Origin: Octopus vulgaris | Taxonomy: Eukaryota | DNA: 64,000 bases | Reading direction: 5' to 3' | Assembly: GCA_951406725.2 (NCBI GenBank) | Contig: OX597821.1 | Span: 5,704,001 to 5,768,000 of the forward strand | Shown: positions 1 through 61,225 of the stretch, in pieces | How positions within the stretch are numbered: the first letter of the stretch is position 1 | Layout: each line of letters begins with the position of its first letter | Notes under the pieces: generated by a model | What the model was told of the DNA's origin: nothing | Seen by the model: the letters and a program-made list of their open reading frames with translations, nothing else | Databases searched by the model: none | Program-made: the position numbers and the translations under genes

Positions 1-465
1 TGCTTGCTTGCTTGCCGGATACTGGATTGTAAACGACTTCCGTCAATATGGCTTTTCTTCATATAACAGTTGTTACCTACTACGCAATTTTTGCCACGTC
101 GTTTGCAATTTACTTCAGAAGACAGCCTACATTCTTTTTTTATGTTTTCTTTTATTTTTTTTTTGTTAGTTTCATGTTGTTGTTGTTGTTGTTTGGTGTT
201 TTTGTGAAATCTTTCTGACAAAGGACTTGAGATTGAAATAGGATTTTGTGCTAATAGGTGTTATATTGTTGAAAATTTATAGTTCTGTGTTCAGTGGGAG
301 AGCGGCTTCTGTCTGTTCTACGTGGATGTATGGCTCATCGTGGACAGATCTATTTTTGTAAGTATGTATGTACGTGTCCCTTCGTATGAGCTTGTGTGTG
401 CGCGCGTAATTATATACGAGCGTCTATTTGCCTGTGTGTGTTTTTCTATGTATGTTTGTATATGA

Positions 466-949
<484 letters not shown>

Positions 950-955
950 TGGGGG

Positions 956-966
956 GTGTGTGTGTG

Positions 967-1014
<48 letters not shown>

Positions 1015-2095
1015 TATGATATTTTGTATAGTATATGTATATGTAGCTCGTGGATTTGTGTATGAGTATTTGTATAAGACTGGGTTAATTTGTGTCTGTG
1101 GCGTACGTATATGTATGTGCGGTTCTGTGTCTGTTTATGTGTGCGGGTATGTACGTGCTTCTATCTGTGAGTATGTGTGTGTTTGGATTATGTTGTGCAT
1201 ATGTATGAGTGTATTATTTGATGAGTGTGTGTGCGTGCTATTGTATGAGTTTGCGTGTGTATGGTTCTTTGTAAGAGTGTGTGTGATTTTGTTATCGTGT
1301 GTGCGTGGTTTTGTCTGTCTACACATATGTGTGTATGTGTTATTTTGTCATGTGTACGTGTGTGTGTATGTGTTTGTGTGTGTGTGTGTGCGTGTGTGTG
1401 TGTGTGTGTGTGCGTGTGTGTGTCTGTGTGTGTATGCGTGTTTGTATGTTGTCTATGCGCGTGTATCTGCAAATCTGTGTGTATTTGTATGTGTGGATAC
1501 CGCGAGTGGGTGATCGCCTGTATGAGAGTGTGTGCTTGTACGCATGCGTGTTCGTGTGGGGGTGGGGTGGGGGTGCGTGTGTGTGTGTGTGTGTGTTTCT
1601 GTGTATGCGTGTATGTCTGTGTATGTTATGCTGTGTATCTGTATATGCGACGAAAGAGCTTGAGTGTATATATGTAAAAAAGGGTGTTTATGGCGTCGAG
1701 TCTGTAAAAAGAGCTAAGTTCGTGCGTTCGTGCATGTGTGTATGCTTCCATATATGAATGTGAATGTGTGTGTGTGAACGTGTGCTTCGCTGTGCAGTTA
1801 ACTTATGTTGGAGACTGCATGTCTGTTTGTAGATACAAGTATGAAATTTCGTGTGAGTGCGTGCGTGTGTGTGTGTGTATGTGCACACGCACGCGTGTGT
1901 GTGTGTGTTTGTGTGGTGCTGTGGGCTTGTGGAGAAAATTTTGAAGGCAACTGCTTGTGTATTTAGAAACATATGCATCAGTATATGTCTATTTAGAGTG
2001 TTCTTATGAAGTTTACTTGTGTTTATGTATATGTGCGTGTGTGTGTGTTTCTATGTAAGTGGGTGTATGTGTGTGTGTCTATGAGTGTGCGTATG
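956..2095. repeat. Degenerate (TG)n-rich low-complexity tract
   Basis: Interrupted TG/TATG repeats. Confidence 0.9.
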
Positions 2096-2194
2096 CTCCA
2101 TTTGTATTTAGCATATGATTTTCAAGGTTTCGATTTGGACACATAGAATGTGTTCGGTTCTCATTGCTGTTGTTGTTGCTGCTGCTGCTGTTGT

Positions 2195-2229
<35 letters not shown>

Positions 2230-3214
2230 TTGTTGCTGTTGTTGTTGTTGTTGTTTAACCCCGGGTCAACCTTTGCTAAACAGCTCTGTGATGATAATCA
2301 TTCCAACCATAATACTCTGATAGTCTCTCACTGGACTGCGTCGTCCAATTTATCCCACTTTTTAAAGGCAATAAAACATGTTTCGAAGGAAATTTGACTG
2401 CTATTTCTAGTATGTTGATCCACCACTTTAAGGCAGCCTCATTGGCTAGTTGTATCCGATAGTAGTCATAACAGTGGTGAAGGCGGTGGTGTGGTGGCAG
2501 TGGTGTTGGCGGTTGTAGTGGTAGTGGTGATGGTGGCAGTGACAGTGTTGGTTGTAGAGGTAATGGTGATGGTGTTAATGGTGGTGGTGCTATTGGTGCT
2601 TGCAGTGATGTGGTGGTAGTGGTGGTTGCAGCGGCGGCGGCGGCGGCGGCGGCGGCGGCAGTGATAGTTCTTTCATTAAACATTTTCTCCTTGAACGTAG
2701 ACAGTAAAACGAAATCGTATTGAAGTGTGTTTTTTAAGGTTACCTATCGCGTAGGCGGTAGCATAGAAGTATTTCTAAAACGTTATACTGACTAGTGATT
2801 TGTTCTTATATAAACAAATCTTACACATGGTATATTTTTATATGTTTATATACTGTCTGAGAGAGAAACAATAAATCTACAAAATTGATGATATAAAAAT
2901 CAATTCACACCATTCTTGCTTGCCAGACAAACTTGATAACATTTTCTCCACAAGAAGCTTGACATGTATTCATCTCACCGATTAAGCTACAAAGATCAAT
3001 GTCCAATCACTCAACAGTTTTCGCAAACACGGATATCTTACATGTCTCAGTTTCATTATTTGAACTTACTTTGAGTACAGGTGTTTATTTGTATGTTTGT
3101 TGGAGTATAAGTATGTTGTACGTATACATGCATGTGTAAATATATATGTAGTACATATATATATAGAGAGAGAGAGTGTGTGTGTGTGTGTGGCAGGAGA
3201 CAGCGAGGGGGATG

Positions 3215-3268
<54 letters not shown>

Positions 3269-3439
3269 TGTATGTATGTATGTATGTATACACACAAATA
3301 TATATAAAGTTGTGTTTATTCTGTTCGCCTGCAAAACCTATGTATATGTATTTACGTGATTGTATGTATGTATATATATGTGTGCGTGTGTATGTGTGTG
3401 TGTATGAATGTATGTATGTATTATGTATATATGAATTAG

Positions 3440-3647
3440 TGTGTCTGTGATTGCCCCCCCCCCCCACTATAACTTGACAAGCGATGTTGGCGTGTTTACG
3501 TCCCTGTCAATTTGCGGTTCGGCAAAAAGAACCGATAGAATAAGTACTACGCTTACAAAGAATAAGTCCTGGGATCGATTTGTTCGACTACAGGCGGTGC
3601 CTCAGCATGGCCGCAGTCCAGTAACTGAAAAAATAAAAGAATAAAAG
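3440..3647 (+). mobile_element. SINE family C, 3' half
   Basis: GCGGTTCGGCAAAA..ACCGATAGAATAAGTAC..CAGCATGGCCGCAGTC..TAAAAGA tail shared with the 37080-37492 copy. Confidence 0.8.
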
Positions 3648-3731
3648 TATATATATCAATGTGTGTGTGCGTACGCGCGCTTGTGTGTAAATATATGCGC
3701 ATGGATGTATGTATGTATGTATGTGTGTATG

Positions 3732-3790
<59 letters not shown>

Positions 3791-4009
3791 GTATATATAT
3801 ATATTTTCATATACATATATATATATGTGTGTGTGTGTATATTTAAAGAGCTAAAAAGCCACTAAGTGGTCAGCCGTATACTAGAAGTAGATCACCTACG
3901 ATCAAACTACAAAGAAAAGAATGCTCTCTAGAGGAAAATTCAGTGGACACCAGAACAAAATGCGGGCAAGACAGATGAAAATTATATAAAAAACAAGAAT
4001 TACTCGCAG

Positions 4010-4074
<65 letters not shown>

Positions 4075-4259
4075 CGTTATATAATTAGAGTTCAGCAAAA
4101 AAAAATTACTTTACCACACACCGAACTTTTAGAAATAGCAGCCAAAGAATTTAGCAATTTCCTCTACTATAAGAAGAGTCTCCCAGACAATGTATACTCA
4201 AAAACAATTCACGTAGGCATAGAGGGAAAAATAACAAAAGATCACACTTACATCGATTA

Positions 4260-4343
4260 CTTGAGAACACCGTTTCTGGGTTAGTTAGATATAGAGATGC
4301 TAGAAATACATCCCTATATCAACATTCCTGTCATCAGCCCAAG
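4260..4343 (-). ncRNA. Type-I hammerhead ribozyme-like motif with long stem II (partly decayed)
   Basis: Minus strand: CUUGGG-CUGAUGA-[GAUAUAGGGAUG/CAUCUCUAUAUC stem]-GAAA-CGGUG-UU-CUCAAG; stem I 6 bp; base of stem II mispaired. Confidence 0.55.
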
Positions 4344-4561
4344 ATTTCGTTAAGTTTAAATTTGAGAGCACTAAAAACCGAACACACCCGTCTGATATGA
4401 GTAACCATATCATTTACCATATTTTAGTAATTTTGAAGTAAGTCGACATTTTTATTTGCTGCCAACAAAAACTGCGCTTGCGGGGTGGATTTGAAAAATT
4501 ATGATGCATAAAGATGAGACATGTGCTTTTTTCCCTCATAATTATATGCTAATGTTTGGCG

Positions 4562-4616
4562 TACCCGCTGATGAGAACTTCGCCTAGCAAATTATTTTTT
4601 TGAAAGTTCGAAACCA
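4562..4616 (+). ncRNA. Truncated hammerhead motif (core + stem II + GAAA; 3' half replaced by (TA)n)
   Basis: CTGATGA(4568-4574)-GAACTT...AAGTTC-GAAA(4610-4613); same stem II base as the 38403 HHR. Confidence 0.5.
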
Positions 4617-4792: not shown

Positions 4793-4899
4793 ACAGAAAA
4801 GAGGAATTTCGGTTGTCCCCACGTGGTGGATTGTAATGTATATAAGAAATTAAAAAAGAAAATACGCACACTTACATGGTTATAATATAATTTTCAATG

Positions 4900-4932
4900 T
4901 ATCGACCGGTTTCGCAACCGCTATTCATGATA
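4900..4932 (-). ncRNA. Minimal hammerhead, A3-U8 core variant, in the PLE 3' pLTR
   Basis: UAUC-AUGAAUA-GC(GGUU)GC-GAAA-CCGG-UC-GAUA; palindromic stem III ACCGGU, GUC site. Confidence 0.65.
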
Positions 4933-6715
4933 TAATGTTTAATTTATATGAATATATATTTTTTCGTAAGAAGAAATTTGGTCCATATTGTTTGTATTGA
5001 AATTCACGAGTGAATGACTTTATAAGTTGACAAGTAAAGGGAGGTAATTGGTTGTTATTGTTGTTATTGTTGTGTGTAAGGGAGATAACTGTTTAGGTTT
5101 TGGGTGGGGAATAAATATGTGTACAGAAAGGAGACAGGTTTAAAAAAAGGGACCTTGTTTAGCAGGGGATTTATGTACAGTGATGTAATATGTAAAAATA
5201 TAAAAGTTGGTTATGCGTGCATATTAAGTTGCGTTTTGTATCTTTCAATGAAAAAAGTTTCTTTATTTAAGCGTTCTAGTTGGGAGATTGTGTCTTTGCA
5301 CTGGTAGAAAGGAAAGACTGTAAAATTTGGTTTGATGTTACCTGCACATTTTTCTATGTGTTCACTAAGAGGAATTTGTCTGTATTGCGGGAAACGGATT
5401 TGCTCCTTATGCAGAGTGATTCTCTTCCTCAAAGTTAAACTCGTTTGTTCAATGTACTGATGACTGAAACCCGAGCAGGTTATTACATAAATTAGGTTCT
5501 CAGAGGCACAGGTGAAATTAGTTTTAATTGTGAACCTCTGTCCTTGTTTGAAAAGGAAATCCGAGCCTTCAAGCAGATTGGGGCAGGTTCCATAGTTCGG
5601 GCGTCCACATTTTTCAACCGTTGGTTTCGTTGTTGTTTTGTAAAGCTTCGCATTTGTTAGTAGTCTCTTTAGCGATTTGTCTTGTTTTTTGCATTTGATG
5701 AGTTTGTGTGTTTTCAGGATGTCGTTCATTTTTGGATGTCTAGTTAGTAAAGGGGGAGTTTGCACAATAGTGTTGAATGCCTCACTGTTTCTGGGGTTGT
5801 GTGTTGATATAAAAAGAAAATTTTTTGGTTTGAGGTGTGGTGCTATGGTTTTTTGTTCTTAGTGTTTTTGTGTCTAATTGTTTGGCACGTTTAATTCCCT
5901 CGTCGATAAGAGAGGGTGGATATTGTCTTTCAATAAGTGTTGTTTTAAGGTCTTGATGACGAAGGTTCCAAGTTGTTCTATCAGATACTATTGTGCAGAT
6001 CCTTTTTGGCTAAGTTAAAAGGGATGTTTATTTTTATGTGTTTCGGATGGCATGAGTTAAAAAGAAGATATTGTTTTGAATCAGTTGGTTTATAATAAAT
6101 GTCAGTTATGATTTCATTAAATTTAATTTATCATGATGTCTAAAAATGGAAGTTGTTCTTTATTATATTCCATTGTGAATTGAATGTTACTATTTATGTC
6201 ATTTAGTGTTGTTTTGAAATCCAAAAGTTTGCCGATGTTCTCCTTCCAGATGATAAAACAGTCATCCAGGTATCGCTTCCAATTTTCTCTTATGTAGAGG
6301 TAAAATGGGTAACCATATTTCTGAAGTGATACTTCATATAAGGTGAATTCAAAATAATCCATTATTAGGCTCGTAAGAACAGGAGCTGCTTTCGTCCCCA
6401 TCGCAATTCCGCATTTCTGACGATAGTATGTGTCATCAAATAGGAAATAATTGTTCTGAAGTATAAATTTTAAGGATTCAATAATAAAGATCTGGTTTAT
6501 GCGTTCCGGGAGGACTTCGGGGTACTTTTCCAAACAGAATTTAATTGCTTTTATTCCATAGTCATGGGAGATGTTGGTGTAAAGATTGATAACATCGAGG
6601 GTGACCAATACTGCCTCTTCATTAGTCGTTTTTGGTAGGTGTTCTAACATGTCTAAATGAAGCTTTTGATGTATTTCAGCGAGGGTTTCAGTAAGATGTC
6701 TAAAAAATTGCTCAT

Positions 6716-6752
6716 TATATCATGAATAGCGATTGCGAAACCGGTCAATATA
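6716..6752 (+). ncRNA. Second (inverted pLTR) copy of the A3-U8 hammerhead variant
   Basis: TATC-ATGAATA-GC(GATT)GC-GAAA-CCGG-TC-AATA; first stem I pair mismatched. Confidence 0.55.
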
Positions 6753-7279
6753 TTAAAAATTATATTAAAACCATGTAAGTGTGCGTATTTTCCTTTTTTA
6801 ATTTCTTATATATATATACATATTGTTCTGGAAGTGTAGAAAGAGTTTTAGACAATCTACTCTCGCGGATTATATAAGTAAGATCGAAATTTTTCAGGTT
6901 TAGAAAACCTAGCTGTAAAACCGTTGTGTGGGTTTAGCAAAGAGTAAAATACAATCCAGATAAGAAGACAAAGAAATATTTTATCCCATCTTCATTGACC
7001 AATTGCAATTGTTTCTGTAGCAACTCCTTTTTCAACACCAATTTACGCAAAAGATCATGTGGAGACTTATGTAATATTTGCGATTTTAAACGTTGGAGTG
7101 ACGCTTTGTCAGACTTGTATCATAGGTGAACTCTTATGTCATACGTTTGCCAAGCTTTGAGTTTTGCTGGTATCGGGAGGAAACAAAAGGTGTAAATAAA
7201 CTTACGAATGAAAAAAATTATGATACGACGGGCAGAGCAAAAATAAAATTGATACCAAAGCTGGTTAAAAAAAATATGG

Positions 7280-14367: not shown

Positions 14368-14742
14368 TCTTTTCTATTATAGGAACAAGGCCTGAAATTT
14401 GCGGAGGGGACTAGTCGATTAGATCGACCCCAGTGTTTCGCTGGTACTTAATTTAGTGACCTCGAAAGGATGAAAGGCAAAGTCGACCTTGGCGGCAAAG
14501 AGTTAAATAATAATGTTATTTATTTCAAACACTGGAATCTATTAATATTCTTTTCTACTCTAGGCACAAGGCCCGAAATTTTTGGGGAGGGACCAGTCAA
14601 TTAGATCGACCCCAGTACGCAACTAGTACTTAACTTATCGACCCTGCAAGGATGAAAGGCAAAGTCGACCTCGGCGGAATTTGAACTCAGACCGTAAAGA
14701 CAGACGAAATGTTGCTAAGCATTTCGCCCGGCGTGCTAACGT
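14368..14742 (-). mobile_element. SINE family B copies (partial 14368-14497, 14550-14742)
   Basis: Same family B motifs on the minus strand. Confidence 0.85.
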
Positions 14743-14774
14743 TGGAGTCTATTAAGATTAAAGAGATCACTAAG

Positions 14775-15000
14775 GCAGGAATGTTAGCACGCCGGGCGAG
14801 GTGCTTGGTGGTGTTTCATCTGTCTTTATATTCTGAGTTCAAATTCCGCCAAAGTCGACTTTGCCTTTCATACTTTCGGGGTCGATAAATTAAGTACCAG
14901 TGACGCACTGGGGTCGATGTAATCGACTTAATTCTTTTGTCTGTCTTTGTTTGTCCCCTCTATGTTTAGCTCCTTGTGGGCAATAAAGAAATAAGAAATG
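14775..15000 (+). mobile_element. SINE family B
   Basis: TTAGCACGCCGGGCG..GAGTTCAAATTCCGCC..GGGGTCGATAAATTAAGTACCAG..AATAAAGAAATAAGAAA. Confidence 0.85.
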
Positions 15001-17575: not shown

Positions 17576-18004
17576 TATATATTTGCCAACTAAATGTAGC
17601 GGTCCCATAGAGGACGATGCTACTGTTGTTTTTAGCTCCAAGAAGACATTTCCTCCAGCTGGCTAACGTTACACTGTCTATGTCCGATTCGAATTTGCGA
17701 GAGGAGGTCATCGCTCCCATCTCTAGCCTTACATGATACACACAGACCCTGATTTCTGGGTAGTTACCCGCCTTCGGTGTGTGATAATGACCACACACCA
17801 GCGATGGAAACTCATTCCACTTGCAAAACATTAAATGCTTTTTCCAACGACAGACTATCGCTGATCTCGGGCCTGTGTGACCTCCCCTCGCAAATACTAA
17901 TCGGGCTCAGACAGTGTTTCGTTAGCCAGCTGGAGGAGATGTCTTCCTGGGGCTAAAACAACAGTAACATCGTCCTCTATGGGACCGCCACATTTAGTTG
18001 TCAA

Positions 18005-18012
<8 letters not shown>
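17576..18012. mobile_element. Fold-back / MITE-like element with ~100-bp inverted arms
   Basis: 17576-17679 is the reverse complement of 17909-18012 with scattered mismatches; TA-rich flanks. Confidence 0.75.
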
Positions 18013-35583: not shown

Positions 35584-35630
<47 letters not shown>

Positions 35631-35660
35631 TCAAAATAAAAACATGATGCCAAGGATTCA

Positions 35661-35738
35661 GCGGTACATATGTTTCGGGCCTTTATTAGACGGATTTATA
35701 ACAATGCATAATGTGTGTCTATGGCCTTCTTCAGCCGC
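35661..35738 (-). ncRNA. Type-I hammerhead motif, left arm of the palindrome
   Basis: Mirror image of 36012-36089. Confidence 0.7.
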
Positions 35739-36011
35739 GCACAACTACTACCTCAAGGACCTCTATTACATCAAAAATTCTACGTTGGGGATGCAAATCC
35801 TCTCATTCGCGTACGACATAATGCGGCAACAGCACAAAAATGAAGCGTCCATCTCGTCCTTCTCTCAATGTAGAATCTACATTGAGAGAAGGACGAGATG
35901 GACGCTTCATTTTTGTGCTGTTGCCGCATTATGTCGTACGCGAATGAGAGGATTTGCATCCCCAACGTAGAATTTTTGATGTAATAGAGGTCCTTGAGGT
36001 AGTAGTTGTGC

Positions 36012-36089
36012 GCGGCTGAAGAAGGCCATAGACATACATTATGCATTGTTATAAATCCGTCTAATAAAGGCCCGAAACATATGTACCGC
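36012..36089 (+). ncRNA. Type-I hammerhead motif, right arm of the palindrome
   Basis: GCGG-CTGAAGA-A-GGCC..TAGAC...GTCTA..GGCC-C-GAAA-CATATG-TA-CCGC; palindromic stem III ACATATGT; GUA site after 36085. Confidence 0.72.
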
Positions 36090-36196
36090 TGAATCCTTGG
36101 CATCATGTTTTTATTTTGATTAATTTACTCCACCACCTACACCACCAAACGGTATATACAGGTGCTTACAATTATCAAGTACTCACCCTGAATTTC

Positions 36197-36495: not shown

Positions 36496-36540
<45 letters not shown>

Positions 36541-36544
<4 letters not shown>

Positions 36545-36898
36545 GAGGCGTGCTACTTGTAGCACCAGCATGCTAAAAATAGCAGTCAAAACGATTCAAA
36601 ACTTTCACTTGTGCACAAGGGCGAAATTGGGGGAACGGACAGTAAAATTCTAAGACCCAGTACCATAGACAAAAAGAATCGAATTTTCTCGTCAGTATGT
36701 ATTACTGACCCAGGGCCAAAACCATGCTCGCTTCGTCCATGTGTTCGATAATCATTTTTAATGGCACGGCAAATTTAAAAAAAGATGACCGAAGTGAATA
36801 AACATTTTAAATATATAAGAATATTATTGTTAATAATTTACAATATCCGTGGCTAGTATGTGTGACAGAACCGTAAAAGGAAAACCATTAATTAATAA
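36541..36898 (-). mobile_element. Non-coding HHR-bearing repeat unit, copy 1 (HHR internally deleted)
   Basis: 36541-36720 is inverted-homologous to 38385-38625, and 36811-36898 to 38625-38710; only CTGACGA remains of the ribozyme. Confidence 0.7.
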
Positions 36899-38384
36899 CA
36901 CTGGTGTGCATGATTTAATTCATTGGCTGTATGGTATCTTTTGCTGAATATATATGAAAAATAATGAGTCATTGTGTTTTTTATCCATCTCTATCACATC
37001 AGGTTGTCAAGTTATACGGAGACGTTAATTTTCTCTTTTCGTATAACAAGTAAATGATAAATTAAAACGCTTACCTTATACTCTTTACTCTTTTACTTGT
37101 TTCAGTCATTTGACTGCGGCCATGCTGGAGCACCGCCTTCAGTCGAGCAAATCGACCCCGGGACTTATTCTTTGTAAGCCCAGTACTTATTCTATCGGTC
37201 TCTTTTGCCGAACCGCTAAGTGACGGCGACGTAAACACACCAGCATCGGTTGTCAAGCAATGTTAGGGGACAAACACAGACACACAAACACACACACACA
37301 CATACATATATATATCTATACATATATACGACAGGCTTCTTTCAGTTTCCGTCTACCAAATCCACTCACAAGGCATTGGTCGGCCCGGGGCTATAGTAGA
37401 AGACACTTGCCCAAGATGCCACGCAGTGGGACTGAACCCGGAACCATGTGGTTGGTTAGCAAGCTACTTACCACACGGCCACTCCTGCGCCTATATTGAC
37501 TTAAACGTTAAATCTAATATATTTTTCTTTATTTTCGGTCTGTGAATATGTCTAGAGGCTGCATCAATTCACCAGATATTTCTTGCTATGTCTGCGGGCA
37601 ATTCACCCCTTCAGACTCCCGGAGCAATATTACTCCTTTGCTGAAGCGCAGCTATTTAGCTTATTTTGGCTGCAAACTGGGAGACCAGGACAAGCCATTT
37701 GCACCTCACAAAGCTTGCAAGAGTTGCATCAGTAAGCTTTCAAATGTGGTCAGTCGGAAAACTTGAATGTATGCCCATTGGAGTACCAATGGTGTGGCGG
37801 GAGCAGATGAACCACTATGATGACTGCTACTTTTGTATAACTAAAGTAACCGGATTCAACAAAAATACTAAAGTTCGCATGATATACCCAAATATTCCTT
37901 CAGCAATAAGGCATGTTCCACACTCAGATGATATTCCTGATATTCCTATACCTGTGTCACCTGAGACATGGGAAATTTCATCAGAGTCTGATACTTGTGA
38001 TACTAATGAGATGGAAGTGGTCTATGATCCACCAACAAATGGCGATCCTAAATTCTTCAACCAAGTTGAGCTCAATGACTTGGTTAGAGACCTTAACCTT
38101 CCAAAAGAACGTGCAGTTACTTGGCTGTAGACTGCAGAAACACACTTATAGCTCCTGGAACAACATTCGCTTGGTACCGTCATTGTGAAGTGGGATTCAC
38201 TCAGTTCTTTAAGAAAGAGTATTCTTTAGTTTTCTGTTCAAAATTTTCTGGACTTATTGAACATATGGGGATGTCGTACAAAATAGATGAATGGGATAGT
38301 AGGGCAGACGGCCAGCACTATGAACAAAAAGCTGGTCACCAAGAACCAGGTTCTTACCCGGAAATCACAACGTGAAAGCTACTA
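36899..38384 (+). mobile_element. Chapaev3-like (CMC) DNA transposon, 5' part, frameshifted and internally deleted transposase
   Basis: Starts TAA|CACTGG. ORFs 37542-38375: CINSPDISCYVCG, YLAYFGCKLGDQDKPFAPHKACKSC, PMVWREQMNHYDDCYFC, ELNDLVRDLNLPKE, WDSRA..QHY. Superfamily assignment is from recalled motifs. Confidence 0.65.
37080..37492 (-). mobile_element. SINE family C, full length, nested in the Chapaev3-like element
   Basis: tRNA-like head GGCGCAGGAGTGGCCGTGTGGTAAG..GGGTTCAGTCCC, CORE-like CTTGGGCAAGTGTCTT, internal SSR, (TAAAAGAG) tail. Confidence 0.9.
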
Positions 38385-38710
38385 GTTGGCCCTGGTCAGT
38401 ATTACTCACTGATGAGAACTAAGTGATCGTTCTCAAAGTTCGAAATCACTGTGATATGGGTATGTCTGATTTTCATTTTCGATTCTTTTCGTCTATGCTA
38501 CGGGAGTCTTAAAATTTTACTGCTCGTTCCCTCGATTTCGTCCCTGTGCATAACTGAAAACTGTGGGTGAGTCGTTTTGACTGGTATTTTTATGATGCTG
38601 GGGCTACAAGTAGCACGCTTCATTATTAATTGATAATTTTACTATTATGGTTCTTTTACACATGCTGGCCACTAATATTATTGTAAATTATTAACAATAT
38701 CCTTATATAC
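38385..38710 (+). mobile_element. Non-coding HHR-bearing repeat unit, copy 2
   Basis: Homologous to 36541-36898 in circularly permuted order. Confidence 0.7.
38403..38462 (+). ncRNA. Complete type-I hammerhead ribozyme motif
   Basis: TACTCA-CTGATGA-GAACT(16 nt)AGTTC-GAAA-TCAC-T-GTGA-TA-TGGGTA; stems I (6 bp), II (5 bp) and III all pair; AUA site after 38456. Confidence 0.85.
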
Positions 38711-38739
38711 ATATATATATGTATATATATACATACATA

Positions 38740-38777
<38 letters not shown>

Positions 38778-38797
38778 CATACATATATGTATGTTTG

Positions 38798-38825
<28 letters not shown>

Positions 38826-38828
<3 letters not shown>

Positions 38829-39043
38829 CAATTTAAATACACAACCGAATAGCTACTAGTAGTTTCAGGCTATTATGATATTTGAACAGGCATATTTATA
38901 AAATACCGCGTGTATCTTAAAGCAATCATTCAGGCTCTGTTTATGCATGGCTCTTTCAGTTGTGTATTTAAATATTCCTGTTTAAGTATCATAATAGCAT
39001 GAAACTATTAGTAGCTTTTTCGGTTGTGTATTTAAATTGATAT
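38826..39043. repeat. Inverted repeat with ~70-bp arms
   Basis: ATATCAATTTAAATACACAACCGAA..GCTATTATGATA..ACAGG mirrored at ~38970-39043. Confidence 0.8.
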
Positions 39044-40667: not shown

Positions 40668-41718
40668 CATTGGGTTGTCCGGAAAGTTCGTGCCGATTTT
40701 TAAAGGAAAGAAAAAGGTCAATGAATACTTGCCATTACATTTTTAATCAACCAAATATGAACCATCTTGTTGCACAATGCGTCTCCATCTTTCCTTTAAC
40801 TTGAAAATACCCTCTTCCCAGAATCGAGGTGGTTTCATGGCAAAGAATTCATCAAAGTATCTTTTTACGTCATCCAAGTCATTGAAATTCTTATCATTAA
40901 CACTATTAAGACCATTCTGCAGAACCTGAATAAGTGGAAATCTGAAGGAGCAAGATCTGGTGAATAGGGAGAATTGAGTAACACATCCCTGCCGAGCTTC
41001 AGCAATTTTTGTCTGGTTCTCAAAGAAACGTGCGGTCTTGCATTATCATGGTGGAAAACAACACCCTTCCTGTTGGCCAATTCTTGACATTTCTCTTGAA
41101 TTGCTGCTTTTAACTCTTCCAGTTGTGTGCAGTATTTCTCAGAATCAATTGTCTGGTTACTTGGGAGAAGCTCATAGTACAGAATTCCTTTCCAATCCCA
41201 CCAGATACAAAGCAAAATTTTTTAGGGAGAAGACCCGCTTGTGGGGTGGTTAAGGGTGGCTCATGTCGCTTACTCCAGGATCGCTTTCTCTGAACATTTC
41301 GGTAGACATTCCATTTCTCATCACCTGTCATAATTTGCTTTAAAAAAGGTGCGTTTTCATTCCGTTTATAAAGCGAATCACAGATGGAAATGCGATCCAA
41401 AAGGTTCTTCTCACTCAACTCATGTGGTACCCAAACATCGTAGCGAGTTGTGTACCCAAGCTTTACCAGGTGCTCATGAACGACGGATTTTGATAGGTTG
41501 AGGCTTTCTGCCAATTCTCAGGTTGTGCAATGTAGTTGAACAATGACTTAGTGGATGGTCTGTCTGATCGCTCTTTATCAATAAGGCTACAATCTCCAGC
41601 TCGGAACCTTGCGAACCACTTCCGTGCAGTTCTTTCGGATAAAGAAGCATCACTGTAAACTGCGCATATTTCTTTGGTTGCTTGTGAGGCATTTTTCCCT
41701 TTACGGAAAAAGAAATTT
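40668..41718 (-). mobile_element. mariner (DD34D) transposon, frameshifted, one TIR, 5' end truncated
   Basis: WVPHELSEKN, MTGDEKW, HHDNARPH, SPYSPDLAPSDFHLF; TIR TTGGGTTGTCCGGAAAGTTCGTGCCG next to TA repeats. Confidence 0.92.
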
Positions 41719-42572
41719 CCCGTGCTACCGATATAGTCTTTCTGGCAGCCCGAGCATCTGATTACGTAGATCAGATCTTCGGATGAACAAGTGAAATTTG
41801 ATTTAATTGTAAAGTGTTGCCTTTGTTTAAAATTGCTTTCTGATCTTGCAAATGGTTGGGGCATGTAACATTTTGGGGTGATTACATTTTTTTGGCTTTG
41901 GAACTTGTGGAGGGGAATAATTTTGCATTAGTTAGCAGTTGTTTTAATGACTCAGGTTGTTTGTTGATTTTGACAATTTTAATGTCGCGTAAAATTATTT
42001 TTAGTTTTGGGTCCTTGTGTAGTATTGGCAGGTTTTGTATGATTGTTCTGAATGCTTCTTTGTTTCTGGGGTTGTCTGTGTTGTATATGTAGGGTAGTGT
42101 TTTAAGAAGAGTTTTGTTAATGTCTTTGGTTTTTCTTAATGTCTCCAGGTTGATAGATTTGGCACGTTTTATTCCTTCATTAATGAGTTGGATTGGGTAG
42201 CATCTATCCAGGAGGGCGTTTTTCACTTCTTGTAGTCTTAAATCTCTAGTTTTTTTTCTCTCATATTAACTTATTGATTCTTCTCTTCCTGCAAGTTTGA
42301 AGGGGATGTTTGTTTTTGTGTGTCTAGGATGGCAAGAGCTAAAGAAAAGGTATTGTTTTGCATCTGTTGTTTTATAAAATATGTCTATTTCGATTTTGTT
42401 GTTGTTTGTTTTTTTAATTAGATGCCTAGGAATAGAAGTGTCTGCTGGTTGTATTCCATTGTGGATTGAATGCTTGTGTGGATGCTGTTCAGAAGTGTTT
42501 TAAATTCTAGGAGTTTGTTTAAGTTGTTATTCCAGAGTATGAAACAGTCATCCAGGAATCTCTTCCGATTCA
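41719..42572 (-). mobile_element. Penelope-like element fragment (RT C-terminus to GIY-YIG N-terminus)
   Basis: RRFLDDCF, YKTTDAKQYLFFSSCHPRHTKTNIPF, YPIQLINEGIKRAK, DLIYVIRCSGCQKDYIGST; same family type as 5211-6650. Confidence 0.88.
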
Positions 42573-48351: not shown

Positions 48352-49095
48352 GTCACATATTTCAACTGCTAAAGGCAAATACACTGCAGTTACCGTGCAG
48401 AAAAATCTTTCTTATGGTAAAAAGGTGTGAAAACACCCAGTTCGTTCAGTGTCGCCATCTCTCGGGAATCTCAGACAACGATGTTTCGGGATTATTGACT
48501 CTTGTCGATGAGATATACCAAAGAGAGACAACTCTGAACGAACTAAATAAAACTTGTAGCTTTATATATAATTCAGTCAACATGTTGCCTGATCTGCCCT
48601 AATAGATCGCCCGATTGAAATGAATAACAAAGTAAAGGTGCAGTTGGTTCAGACAAATATATTTCAACTAACCTAAATTCCGAATATACGTAAACACTGC
48701 TTTGCGCCATTACTTCGTTATTTATTTCGATCGGTCAATCTACTAGAGCAAATCAACATGTTGACTGAATTATATATAAAGCTACATGCTTTATTTAGTT
48801 CGTTCAGAGTTGTCTCTCTTAGTTACAGCTCATTGACAAAAGTCAATAAACTCGAAACATCGATGTTTAAGATTCTCGAGAGATGACAACACTGAACGAA
48901 TTGGGTGTTTTCATACTTTTTTAACATAAGAGAGATTTTTCTCCACAGTAACTGCAGTATACTTGCCTTTAGCAGTTGAAATATGTGATAAACATATTTC
49001 AAAAAACCTAAATTGGTGCTATACGTAGACACTGCTTTGCACCATTACTTCGTTATATATATATATATTTCAACTTACCTAATTCTGCGAAGATA
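48352..49095. mobile_element. Non-coding fold-back element: ~290-bp inverted arms plus partial tandem repeat (~337-bp unit), U3-A8 hammerhead variant in each arm
   Basis: 48352-48642 vs 48702-48989 inverted; 48655-48720 repeated directly at 48991-49056; HHR-like motifs at 48470-48512(-) and 48829-48871(+). Confidence 0.8.
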
Positions 49096-54499: not shown

Positions 54500-56140
54500 T
54501 TAGTTAGTTAGTTAGTTAATTTGGCTCAAAAGCAAGTAGCAAGGCCATGTAGGGGGACATGGAGTTAAGTACAGGGTGGTGTTCATGTAAAGAGTTCAGG
54601 CCACTTGAGGTCCAGGAAGGCTTTGAACAAAGCGGTCGTCGGCATCTTCACCATCTCGTCTGGCAGCTTGTTCCACGGATCCGCAACCCGGACGGAGAAA
54701 GCTCCTCTCCTTCGATTGAGATGAAATCGTCGCAGGTAGAGCTTTTCGGAATGACCCCGCAGCCGACGCTCTGGAGCAGGAGTGAAGAACAGCTCTTTCG
54801 AGAGGTTACACTTTCCGCTTATGATGTTGTGGGCGAGAATGAGATCACCACGGCGGCGGCGTTTTTCAAGAGAATAAAGGTCGAGCGTCCTCAGCCTTTC
54901 TTCGTAGGACACATTTTTGAGACCATGAACCATGCGGGTAGCCAGCTTCTGGACTCTTTCGAGATGCTGTATGTCTTTGAGGAGATAAGGAGAAGAGGCT
55001 TGAATCCCATACTCCAATATGGGTCTCACCAGCGTGACATAGAGTGGTAGGAATATGGCTGCTGTGAGCATTCCGAATGACCGTCGAATCAAGAACAGAA
55101 TTCCGCGTGCTTTGTTGGCAGCATGGACGCACTGGGCCGAAGGCGAAAAGGAGGAATCCACCGAGATACCCAGGTCCTTTACCTGATCGGTCCTCTCCAG
55201 CAGCAGACGACCCGGCTCGAAATCAAGTTGAGTTGCAGGAGTAGAGCCGACAGGCAGATGACAGCACTTTGACACGTTCAGACACAGGTCCCAATCGTTA
55301 GACCACTTCCAAATTTGGTGGAGGCATCGACGAAGGTCCTCTATATTACCGCGAGGAGCGACCAGTTTGATATCGTCGGCAAATAGAAGGGTGTGTTGCG
55401 TAAGGTCGTCGGGCAAGTCATTTATGAAGACTAAGAACAACAAGGGCCCAAGCACTGAACCTTGAGGCACGCCACTGCTCGCACTGGAGACGTCGGACCG
55501 CGAACCATTAACTTGGACTTGGAAGGAGCGATCTGAGAGGAAGGCACCAACCCATCGTATAATATCCGGATGGAAACTATATGCTTGAAGCTTTGCAAGT
55601 AATAGGCGGTGGTTTACCGAGTCAAAAGCTTTGGCAAAGTCCAATAAAACGATGTCAACAGCATCACTATCATCGAGGATGCGCGTCACCAATTCTTCCA
55701 TTACTAGTAAGTTGGTCAAGCATGATCTCTTCGGCACGAAGCCGTGTTGGGGATCAGAGATAGAGGCTGTGTTTAGGAGGTGGAGCATCATATTTTTCTT
55801 AAGGATGGTTTCGAACATCTTGCTGATTATTGATGTAAGGGAAACCGGTCGGTAGTTAAGCGGGTCTTCGCGGCTCCCTTTCTTGAAAATTGGGCAGATT
55901 ATCGCTGTTCTCCAGTCTGCAGGTATAACACCCGTCGCCAATGACATATTGAATAGTCGTGTTAAGGGCTCGCAGATGACCGGAGCCAACGCTTTGATAA
56001 CCCGTGGGTGTATGCCGTCAGGGCCGTGACCCTTGTTGACATCGAGGCCTTGAATAACACGTTTGACTTCGTCCCGCGTGATGACCTATCGAAGCATTGG
56101 AGGTACCGATCTATCAAATGGAATTGTATCATGATGGTGT
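54500..56140 (-). mobile_element. CR1-clade LINE, 5'-truncated, with (TAAC)n tail
   Basis: RT ORF open ~56085-54583; 3' TAAC repeats at 54500-54520. Confidence 0.92.
54583..55989 (-). CDS. Non-LTR reverse transcriptase (CR1 clade ORF2, N-terminally truncated)
   Basis: PIFKKG..NYRPVSLTS, QHGF, LDFAKAFDSV, GVPQGSVLGPLLF, LFADD, DLGI, RPILEY, LERVQK, RLRGH; the frame extends upstream (GPDGIHPRVIK). Confidence 0.93.
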   Translation of the reverse strand: MAPVICEPLTRLFNMSLATGVIPADWRTAIICPIFKKGSREDPLNYRPVSLTSIISKMFETILKKNMMLHLLNTASISDPQHGFVPKRSCLTNLLVMEELVTRILDDSDAVDIVLLDFAKAFDSVNHRLLLAKLQAYSFHPDIIRWVGAFLSDRSFQVQVNGSRSDVSSASSGVPQGSVLGPLLFLVFINDLPDDLTQHTLLFADDIKLVAPRGNIEDLRRCLHQIWKWSNDWDLCLNVSKCCHLPVGSTPATQLDFEPGRLLLERTDQVKDLGISVDSSFSPSAQCVHAANKARGILFLIRRSFGMLTAAIFLPLYVTLVRPILEYGIQASSPYLLKDIQHLERVQKLATRMVHGLKNVSYEERLRTLDLYSLEKRRRRGDLILAHNIISGKCNLSKELFFTPAPERRLRGHSEKLYLRRFHLNRRRGAFSVRVADPWNKLPDEMVKMPTTALFKAFLDLKWPELFT

Positions 56141-56614: not shown

Positions 56615-58448
56615 TTTATTTAAAGCAGCAGAAAATTCAACAAAATCTGTTACTCTGAGTTTCTCGTTGCCGTTCATCAGACAGTTTTTGCTAGAATGGA
56701 ACCGATATATCAATTCAATCTAGACTCTTACAAACGCTACACCTTTAAAAAGAAATGGACTTGTTTGATTGGCCCTTTAGAAAAAACGGTCAATCTTCGA
56801 GCGATAAACAAAAAGGTCAAAAATATATGTATATATATATAAAAACTTATAAAAATTATAAAATTCGAGGAAAAAACCTTACATTGAATAAAATACATAA
56901 TGACATTAATGAAGAAAGTATAATTAAAGCTTAGAAATTAAACCTATTATAAATATTACACTGCAATACATATTTAAGTTAAAGCGTACATATATATATC
57001 AACATACACAGAAGGATGCGTGCAAAACGCCATACATATACAGACGTATAAATATAAATCTGAAATATACACATAAATGCATGCGTATATATATTTACAC
57101 AATCCATCTCGCACGCAATTTAAAATCATCTATGTAGCGATTCTCATATACTGAGTAAGGGAGGGCGAAAGAAAGGAAGAGAGAGAAAAAGGAACGAAGA
57201 AAGGGGAAGGAAAAAAGAAAAAAGAAAAGGAGGGGTGGGGAAAAAAACGAAATAAGAAAAAATTATGTATAAAAGCTATGTAACGGCATTATTGACATGT
57301 ATGGAGACATGTATACAAATACACAAGCTCGAATGGATACATACACATACAGTCGTGTATATGTGTGCTTAAGCACAAACATACGTCCACTTACACATAC
57401 ACAGATACGCATGCTTACAAATACATATCCATGGCTATACACATACTTATATAAAAATTCTAATTTTTGACAACATTGCTTTTTTTAAAGAAATGGGTGC
57501 AATAATAAAAAATATAAGACATATAAAATAAAATATAACACCCTATTTTGGATCATCTATAAAAAATCAAGGTAATCCTATACAATACAATAACTTGAAA
57601 TAAAAAGTCGGAGGTTTTTCCTAATGTATATGTCGAAACATAAGACTTTGCTATACGGATTAAAATCTGTATAACGCGGAACAAAATCAATTGTAGCGCT
57701 CACAGCTCAAGAGTCAAAATCAAAATTTCAAAAATCAAAAATACAAAATATATACTCTATCCATATGGTATATTTATATTCGACATTTTAAATTTAGCCG
57801 CGTGCCTACATAAGTTCATGAGCTCACTTCTTTGATTCAAAGAATTATTGTCTTTGAATAAGATGTACATTTTTTCTAATAGACAAAGTTTGCACTTGAA
57901 ATTATTTTTGTATGCTCCATGCCTGTATGGTGCCGCCCTGTCCAGAATGCGTTGAAAGGTGGGGTTTCCTTTTCTTTTAGTTCCCAGACATATTTTGCTA
58001 GGCTGGTCCTCTTCCTATTCTCTGGGTATTTAAATGAATCTTTATGAGAATAAAATCTTGTTTTAAATGAATTCTCTGAAGCCCCTGTGTATGTCTTGTA
58101 TTACGATGAGCCTTCTACTTGCACCTTGGCTTTATAAACTACTCCTTTCACTAGACATTTCCCTTCTAACGGACAGGAGCTTTCGTTTTTGAAATTGCAT
58201 TTCTTAATGGGCTCGGCACCATGTCTAATCTCAATTAGCTTTCTATTATGCTGGCTAATGTAAGAGGCAAAATTTCTGCAACAAGAATAGCTAACCTTCA
58301 GGGTTCTTCTATTAAATATCCTATAGAATTTATGACCCTGCTTAAAATGCTTAGAGACTAATCTCAAAAATTCCTTACCTGTATTAGTCTTTACGGCCAA
58401 ATTGAAAGCCGGGTTGAACCACAAAACTTTCCTGGTCCTAGTTTTTCA
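56612..58448 (-). mobile_element. Penelope-like element 3' end (GIY-YIG region plus long 3' UTR)
   Basis: WFNPAFNLAVKTNTGKEFL..IFNRRTLKVSYSC..CPLEGKCLVKGVVYKAKV, then YTGASENSFKTRFYSHK, CKLCLLEK, LNQRSELMNLCRH. Confidence 0.85.
56641..56690 (-). ncRNA. Type-I hammerhead motif at the PLE 3' end
   Basis: CAAAAACUGU-CUGAUGA-ACG(GCAA)CGA-GAAA-CUC-A-GAG-UA-ACAGAUUUUG; 9/10-bp stem I, GUA site. Confidence 0.8.
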
Positions 58449-61143: not shown

Positions 61144-61225
61144 TAGCTCTGATGAGACTTATATAAGTGAATTGAATTGTTTGTATATCAAATAATGTAT
61201 ATAAGTCGAAACAAATTGTTGGCTG
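61144..61225 (+). ncRNA. Type-I hammerhead ribozyme motif
   Basis: TAGCT-CTGATGA-GACTTATATA(32 nt)TATATAAGTC-GAAA-CAA-A-TTG-TT-GGCTG; perfect 10-bp stem II. Confidence 0.8.

Follow-up and report, generated by a model that had tools for sequence, protein, structure and literature searches.

A decayed head-to-head pair of hammerhead-bearing repeats in Octopus vulgaris: probable Penelope-type insertion of a short retrozyme-like unit

Introduction

Animal non-long terminal repeat (non-LTR) retrozymes are tandem units of 150-450 bp with a GC content below 50% and type I hammerhead ribozymes; they are expressed as circles, described as highly self-paired, with Penelope-like elements (PLEs) being proposed as their movers (PMC7229834). 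A 2026 preprint derives retrozymes from pseudo-long terminal repeats (pLTRs) on the basis of co-occurrence and homology, and the sections available leave the mechanism open (Li, Clavereau and Pollet; 10.64898/2026.07.22.740005). Here we describe two opposite-orientation copies of a hammerhead-bearing unit that enclose a DNA transposon fragment at positions 36544-38709 of a 64-kb stretch of Octopus vulgaris DNA (assembly GCA_951406725.2, contig OX597821.1, positions 5,704,001 to 5,768,000), hereafter the window, and we compare them with both kinds of element.

PLE insertions in print take the form of partial tandems joined to an inverted, 5'-truncated copy, with a tail of 30-40 bp at one end and a bias towards microsatellites (10.1101/2021.04.23.441226; PMC3846280). 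The tail has been explained as the stretch between two internal reverse transcription start sites downstream of the hammerhead, and PLE cleavage is reported to prefer AT-rich DNA (PMC11167929). Hammerhead pairs on opposite strands, 100-700 bp apart, are known, as is a U3/A8 variant of the hammerhead core (PMC4209133). A repeat annotation of 2026 describes many PLE families in one octopus, and its main text does not use the word "ribozyme" (PMC13282606). A literature search found no cephalopod retrozymes in print; the supplements of PMC7229834 and PMC13282606, which may list examples, lay outside it.

Results

Two permuted copies of one unit

The window is microsatellite-rich, repeat-laden animal DNA with broken reverse transcriptase (RT), GIY-YIG and mariner-type open reading frames (ORFs), and Tandem Repeats Finder (TRF) places (TA)n tracts densely across it. 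Within it, the right arm (copy 2; 38386-38709, + strand) aligns unbroken to the left arm (copy 1; 36898-36544, - strand) when the latter is read as a circle. In ribozyme sense, copy 2 runs hammerhead-A-B and copy 1 runs B-X-hammerhead remnant-A. A scripted alignment of copy 2 to doubled copy 1 gave 221 identical columns of 259 (85%), with 24 transitions and 14 transversions plus indels, and scored 313.6, versus 215.4 for single copy 1. The passage from A to B in copy 2 falls exactly at the wrap point (38622/38623 = 36544/36898), the one unit junction visible in that copy. By BLAST, the 5' half of the copy 2 hammerhead (38386-38417) matches 36719-36687 (-), block A (38478-38622) matches 36683-36544 (-) at 82.6% (E 1e-37), and block B (38623-38709) matches 36898-36812 (-) at 78.9% (E 2e-15).

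Copy 1 comprises on the - strand block B (36812-36898), block X (36720-36811; 92 nt, within the window present only here), the hammerhead remnant (36684-36719) and block A (36544-36683; ~82% to its counterpart). It amounts to one whole unit less a deletion of ~60 nt, with TAA on the + strand at both ends (36541-36543 and 36896-36898). The 324 nt of copy 2 and the 92 nt of block X give a unit of 416 nt, with a GC content of 0.36, a longest stop-free frame of 62 codons, no ORF remnant in blocks A, B or X, and no LTR, all of which agrees with the 150-450 bp, low-GC, ORF-less format of non-LTR retrozymes. Blocks A and B each occur in just two copies in the 64 kb.

These results bear out most of an earlier note on this DNA, which had proposed two opposite copies in permuted block order, a monomer of ~415 nt (357 bp plus ~60 bp deleted) and a non-LTR retrozyme whose hammerhead is the most canonical in the window. 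The note had also taken the permuted order to reflect a tandem or circular template. Its core stands, as the permutation needs a template longer than one unit; the accompanying picture of two separate copies with free ends is not supported. The permutation follows as readily from a linear tandem transcript as from a circle, and two copies cannot separate them, although copy 1 is exactly one unit, its two ends coinciding at one TAA at a distance from the cleavage site, which hints at a circle.

Could the arrangement be an assembly artefact? The window is filled with microsatellites and holds a near-perfect palindrome at 35625-36125, which would favour such an error. On the other hand, mismatches between the arms occupy 38 of 259 columns, with indels in addition, and a 386-nt contig of sequencing run X1 reproduces 36565-36950, including the block order of copy 1, with one difference. 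Since X1 may be the window's own source, this contig guards against assembler error only. We judge an artefact extremely improbable.

By eye, the B/X boundary of copy 1 shows a TATA-like run and then an initiator-like word; this lead was dropped on account of the short spacing and the AT-rich region.

The hammerhead

A type I hammerhead with an extended helix I was found by descriptor and folding at 38395-38470 (+), around the motif of the earlier note (38403-38462), with the core, an open helix I, helices II and III and a NUH triplet. Core position C3 lies at 38409, and helices I, II and III measure 6, 5 and 3 bp, with an additional A-U pair. Helix I continues beyond its 6 bp through a 3x3 internal loop into 5 bp more, helix II carries a 16-nt loop, and helix III, with 4 pairs in all, is palindromic and could pair intra- or intermolecularly. 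The predicted cleavage site follows A38456 (38456/38457), at an AUA triplet, which occurs in a natural viroid hammerhead and was the slowest of four triplets assayed (PMC1636495). Two motifs of the window, at 38409 and 61149, pass a strict descriptor demanding the core, three helices and the NUH triplet, and no match of any kind arises in 200 block-wise dinucleotide shuffles. The motif at 38409 is canonical. Rfam returned no hammerhead for 38330-38700 (its single match being an unrelated small nucleolar RNA, E 0.31) and none among the 150 matches listed of 318 in a further search.

The hammerhead fold is not the minimum-energy one (-7.5 kcal/mol when constrained versus -11.9 kcal/mol; z -0.61). 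In the 76-nt context, pairing probabilities reach 0.45-0.47 for helix II, 0.26-0.39 for helix III and 0.75-0.99 for the extended helix I; in the context 38386-38623, helices II and III fall to at most 0.02 and a rival hairpin at 38413-38435 reaches 0.96. Position 38429, in the top pair of that hairpin, is G here and A in most family contigs (18 contigs, depth 1302/1422), a change that would abolish one of its pairs, so the misfold may be private decay of copy 2. The remnant in copy 1 keeps the 5' strand of helix I and the core (C3 at 36695); the helix II loop, helix III and the cleavage site are deleted. The locus is a fossil: the ribozyme of copy 1 is partly gone, and that of copy 2 is predicted to misfold when its context is lengthened.

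According to the earlier note, a motif at 4562 shares sequence with the hammerhead at 38409. The shared pattern indeed has two matches in the window, and none of 100 shuffles has two, but it was drawn from those same two places. The 4568 motif is cut by (TA)n before helices III and I, leaving a tie of only 21 letters of core and helix II. It ends an element at 4075-4616 that lies between two (TA)n tracts and holds a 70-codon frame, for which no protein relative was found among 83 candidates; the hammerhead there breaks off at helix III. A proposed homology of 4075-4567 to blocks B and X was abandoned, the alignment being no better than shuffles (20/300 as good).

Outside the window, a 23-nt motif of block A had no match in metagenome contigs, and the core/helix II pattern had none in viral contigs. 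Its match in one metagenome contig was set aside as chance, with no other likeness to the window; by translation that contig resembles what we take to be a eukaryotic cytidylyltransferase gene.

Outward 3' ends, (TA)n targets and a one-sided tail

In ribozyme sense both copies point outward, with their 5' ends facing each other ~1.5 kb apart and each 3' end in a (TA)n tract, at 36499-36542 on the left (TRF period 2, 22 copies) and in a (TA)n-rich tract at 38704-38828 on the right (TRF). The left arm ends 166 nt past the cleavage site and the right arm 253 nt past it. The difference of 87 nt is block B of copy 2 (38623-38709), a one-sided extension, or tail, beyond the 3' end of the left arm. 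Head-to-head arms, a tail on one side, a microsatellite target and a hammerhead near the 3' end thus occur together, and the outward 3' ends in (TA)n with the extra 87 nt are the published inverted-arm-plus-tail signature of PLEs. Two arms of one PLE-type inverted insertion are a better reading of the opposite orientation than separate copies, and the locus is probably best filed as a decayed head-to-head insertion of this type, formed by a short retrozyme-like unit.

Seven inverted pairs, chosen from 19 rows of a masked self-comparison of the window, were examined. Among the six others, a PLE-type insertion fits four in part or whole, is unclear for one and does not fit one. The pair at 48353-49073 has arms identical at 251 of 286 columns (87.8%) in (TA)n and an 87-nt tail (48987-49073) that recurs at 48652-48738 with a period of 335; it is a second short permuted unit, of 335 nt. 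Its arms (48353-48988) show, by eye, a decayed hammerhead-like motif with a U3/A8-type core and a palindromic helix III; taken singly they give no match to the strict descriptor. A ~250-bp palindrome of 99.4% identity lies between (TA)n tracts at 35625-36125, with a tail of ~70 nt (to 36196) and a minimal, outward-pointing hammerhead in each arm (C3 at 36016, +, and 35734, -; 50-nt loop II); 35625-36196 is either a PLE-type insertion of very recent date or in part an artefact of assembly. Immediately beyond the (TA)n tract on the right, inverted arms of ~74% identity at 38829-39039 continue in a one-sided extension of ~65 nt (to 39105), and each carries an outward GAAAC motif, with no full hammerhead and no descriptor match. 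At 4836-4945 and 6705-6815, inverted 110-bp pieces frame an RT and GIY-YIG ORF. The 128-bp arms at 17577-18010 (88%) lie between (TA)n tracts and have neither a tail nor a convincing hammerhead, and the pair at 14595-14928 is outside (TA)n and looks unrelated.

Alternatively, there may be no mobile 415-nt unit, and the same geometry might reflect the termini of an autonomous PLE. The pLTR would then be X-hammerhead-A, and B the tail or the start of the body, brought into contact with X by a local ORF deletion or a template jump. A pLTR-body-pLTR arrangement with a tail and an inverted pLTR is reported for PLEs, as are internal deletions at microhomologies (PMC3846280), and the hammerhead would stand ~100-250 nt before the 3' ends, as in Anolis Poseidon (PMC11167929); moreover, PLE RT and GIY-YIG ORFs occur within the window and the locus has other microhomology deletions. 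Nevertheless, blocks A, B and X hold no ORF remnant, the ORF between the arms encodes a DNA transposase, and the hammerhead belongs to the canonical, retrozyme-like class. A second, unrelated permuted unit (335 nt) in the window also makes a chance local deletion less likely. We consider this explanation doubtful, while granting it a real share of the weight.

The enclosed transposon and its junctions

Homologues, tblastn and the TWA/CAC rule place the 5' part of a Chapaev3-type DNA transposon between the arms (36899-38393, +), with a CAC terminus after TAA and its 3' part missing. The broken transposase (37548-38377) covers residues ~1-250 and ~330-360 of ~560 and has 43 homologues (best E 5.6e-32), proteins to which we presume the Chapaev3 family name applies. 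Pfam gave no match for it, and the source records call the homologues uncharacterised. Described Chapaev3 ends have CAC directly after a TWA triplet (PMC3014272), and contig depth here jumps tenfold, from 144 to 1436, at the 36899 boundary. Neither the transposon's 3' terminus nor its C-terminal part was found near the locus. Upstream of the transposase ORF, a high-copy repeat resembling a short interspersed nuclear element (SINE) is inserted at 37084-37496; it has 13 other matches in the window, and its ends were taken from contig loose ends. By tblastn and alignment, the 8 nt at 38386-38393 (+) belong both to the transposase sequence and to the start of copy 2, and are likely the microhomology of a deletion.

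If the hammerhead were incidental, the copies might be long terminal inverted repeats (TIRs) of this transposon or a rearrangement of it. They flank the transposase in inverted orientation, their wrap point TAA equals the transposon's target triplet, and contig depth over 38366-38511 (1269-1541) resembles that of the transposase (761-2027). However, the CAC that follows TAA at 36899, inside the left arm and marked by the rise in depth, is the transposon's own end; block B breaks the symmetry, lying inside on the left and outside on the right; and no 3' end is nearby. The arms are thus not its TIRs, as the earlier note had also held. In addition, the right copy cuts the transposase at ~residue 360 of 560, and the descriptor that accepts the hammerhead accepts none of the 200 shuffles. 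This reading is in our view very improbable.

One insertion or two

Two independent insertions of non-LTR retrozymes from circular RNA, each with its own start and end, might have become neighbours by chance or through (TA)n hot spots. The permuted ends, the 15% difference between the copies and the dense (TA)n tracts accord with this, as do other family copies: summed contig depth, which is not copy number, is 144-3882 over the bins of the unit versus 38 for the contig of the locus, and all blocks have other copies. Yet the only two copies in 64 kb lie 1.5 kb apart with 5' ends facing and 3' ends in (TA)n, whereas the probability that an independently inserted copy would fall within 2 kb in inverted orientation is 0.8-2% for 10,000 copies in 1-2.5 Gb and 8-18% for 100,000, copy numbers being assumptions in both cases. 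Furthermore, the paired geometry recurs in other families of the window. We hold separate insertions to be quite unlikely.

The arms diverge by 14.7 +/- 2.2%, and seven other transposon contigs differ by 15.6% (pooled) from this transposon copy, a figure limited by the 80% identity cut-off for contig placement. The two values are close, so the ages would allow nesting of the transposon within the arm pair.

Four of 24 sequencing runs were compared with the locus, and most alignments and all joints listed (15/1075) fell in the SINE. In two runs guessed to be RNA (X15 and X17; shares 0.18 and 0.14), contigs cover the hammerhead and A bins at low depth (25.5 and 12.9) and the rest of the unit only slightly. 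In a run of the same species label (X22), 51 of 12.9 million reads aligned, all to the SINE and none to the unit, too few even for the SINE and uninformative.

Other elements in the window

A broken PLE lies on the - strand at 4836-6820, with RT (6126-6719) and GIY-YIG (5214-5858); its 5' end carries a 110-bp piece of pLTR in inverted orientation. A hammerhead-like motif with an altered core is present in both pLTR pieces, and a Cys-rich linker suggests membership of the Neptune group. A mariner-type transposase (PF01359, PF17906) breaks up a second PLE-like ORF remnant at 40868-42265 (-); the third, at 57760-58445 (-), was recognised by eye only. Further descriptor matches to type I hammerheads are found at 61144-61225 (+; helices 5/10/2) and 47252-47208 (-; 5/7/1, helix II being mismatched at its foot). 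A 500-codon uninterrupted RT frame of the long interspersed nuclear element (LINE) type at 54586-56085 (-; PF00078, E 2.8e-33; GC 49%) is likely a young insertion.

Discussion

Our preferred explanation, held with moderate confidence, is that the two copies are the arms of a single old insertion, made in trans by a PLE reverse transcriptase/endonuclease from RNA longer than one unit. The starting point is the ORF-less unit B-X-hammerhead-A, read here in two registers. A tandem or circularised transcript of it would give continuity both from A to B and from B through X to the hammerhead. By analogy with PLE biochemistry (PMC11167929), the enzyme would have nicked a (TA)n tract on both strands, and reverse transcription would have started at two internal sites, 166 and 253 nt past cleavage, the 87 nt between them becoming the tail. 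The product is the head-to-head pair with both 3' ends in (TA)n. A Chapaev3-type transposon would then have entered a TAA in the inner part, and the SINE the transposon. Finally, deletions at microhomologies would have taken away the catalytic half of the left hammerhead and, on the right, the arm's inner end together with the 3' part of the transposon.

More tentatively, copy 1 may represent exactly one turn of a circular RNA, the PLE enzyme starting inside a retrozyme circle and stopping at its own start; together with the 335-nt unit, the genome would then hold footprints of PLE enzymes inserting retrozyme circles. We regard this as unlikely, if worth stating. The inner end of copy 1 is set by a TWA-targeting transposon and its outer end by likeness to (TA)n, so the coincidence of one exact unit, at ~4-7%, is not remote.

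Several observations weigh against the single PLE-made insertion. The hammerhead is of the canonical class, with no extra base at the foot of helix II and a stable helix III, unlike most animal PLE hammerheads. The tail of 87 nt exceeds the published 30-40 bp, though 65-87 nt recurs in the window. TRF finds no tandem array of the unit at the locus, and the B-X junction is known, from the window data, at one locus only. No significant likeness to an autonomous partner emerged between the unit and eight other repeat or pLTR stretches of the window (32 tests; at best 1 of 60 shuffles as good, in two tests), nor between the unit and the sequence upstream of the 4568 motif (20/300 shuffles as good). 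Circular folding does not go beyond 60 shuffles (z -0.57 for copy 1 as a circle, -0.75 for copy 2 plus X), and the self-pairing described for retrozyme circles is thus not seen, in what is a weak test on copies decayed by ~15%. The arms are slightly, not significantly, less diverged than the supposedly younger transposon. Moreover, the transposon and the left arm's 3' end share one TAA of the unit; with 24 TWA in the unit, 15 of them TAA on the + strand, the preferred explanation has to accept a coincidence of ~1/15 to 1/24. In the SINE-dominated reads nothing pointed to transcription, cleavage or circles, and neither circles nor ends are visible in contigs.

PLEs are the proposed movers of animal retrozymes, by a mechanism that the cited texts leave open (PMC7229834; 10.64898/2026.07.22.740005). 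A short ORF-less hammerhead unit bearing the PLE insertion signature fits this idea, and insertion of a circle by a PLE enzyme, if true, would supply direct footprints for a connection that has until now been argued from co-occurrence and likeness to pLTRs. Nothing about the locus itself, a decayed repeat, suggests a host function.

Against known systems, the enclosed fragment resembles Chapaev3 in starting with CAC after TWA and in homologues of ~560 aa, versus 485 and 561 aa in the description of that group (PMC3014272). It differs in being a 3'-truncated passenger, and the 11-19-bp TIRs given there are unlike arms of 300-400 nt. With PLE insertions (Arkhipova et al., 2013, PMC3846280; Craig et al., 2021, 10.1101/2021.04.23.441226; Frangieh et al., 2024, PMC11167929), as those accounts present them, the locus shares head-to-head arms, a one-sided tail from two internal RT starts, an AT-rich or microsatellite target, a hammerhead shortly before the 3' end and microhomology junctions. 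In contrast, the unit is not an autonomous PLE and has no RT/GIY-YIG ORF, the tail measures 87 nt and not 30-40, the hammerhead is canonical and not minimal, and B lies only ~92 nt before the hammerhead.

With animal retrozymes, the unit has in common its ORF-less 150-450-bp format, a GC content below 50%, one canonical type I hammerhead per unit, copies of more than one unit and PLEs in the same genome; mussel retrozyme units measure 350-390 bp, versus 416 nt here. It departs from them in lacking a head-to-tail array with two intact hammerheads, the activity criterion of the preprint (10.64898/2026.07.22.740005), in its head-to-head copies with a tail and in a circular fold not above shuffles. 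By its features the unit may be a retrozyme or a pLTR derivative, and "retrozyme" may even denote here nothing other than a pLTR derivative of a PLE. Taken together, these comparisons indicate that the locus is likely a new example of a known pattern and not a new kind of element.

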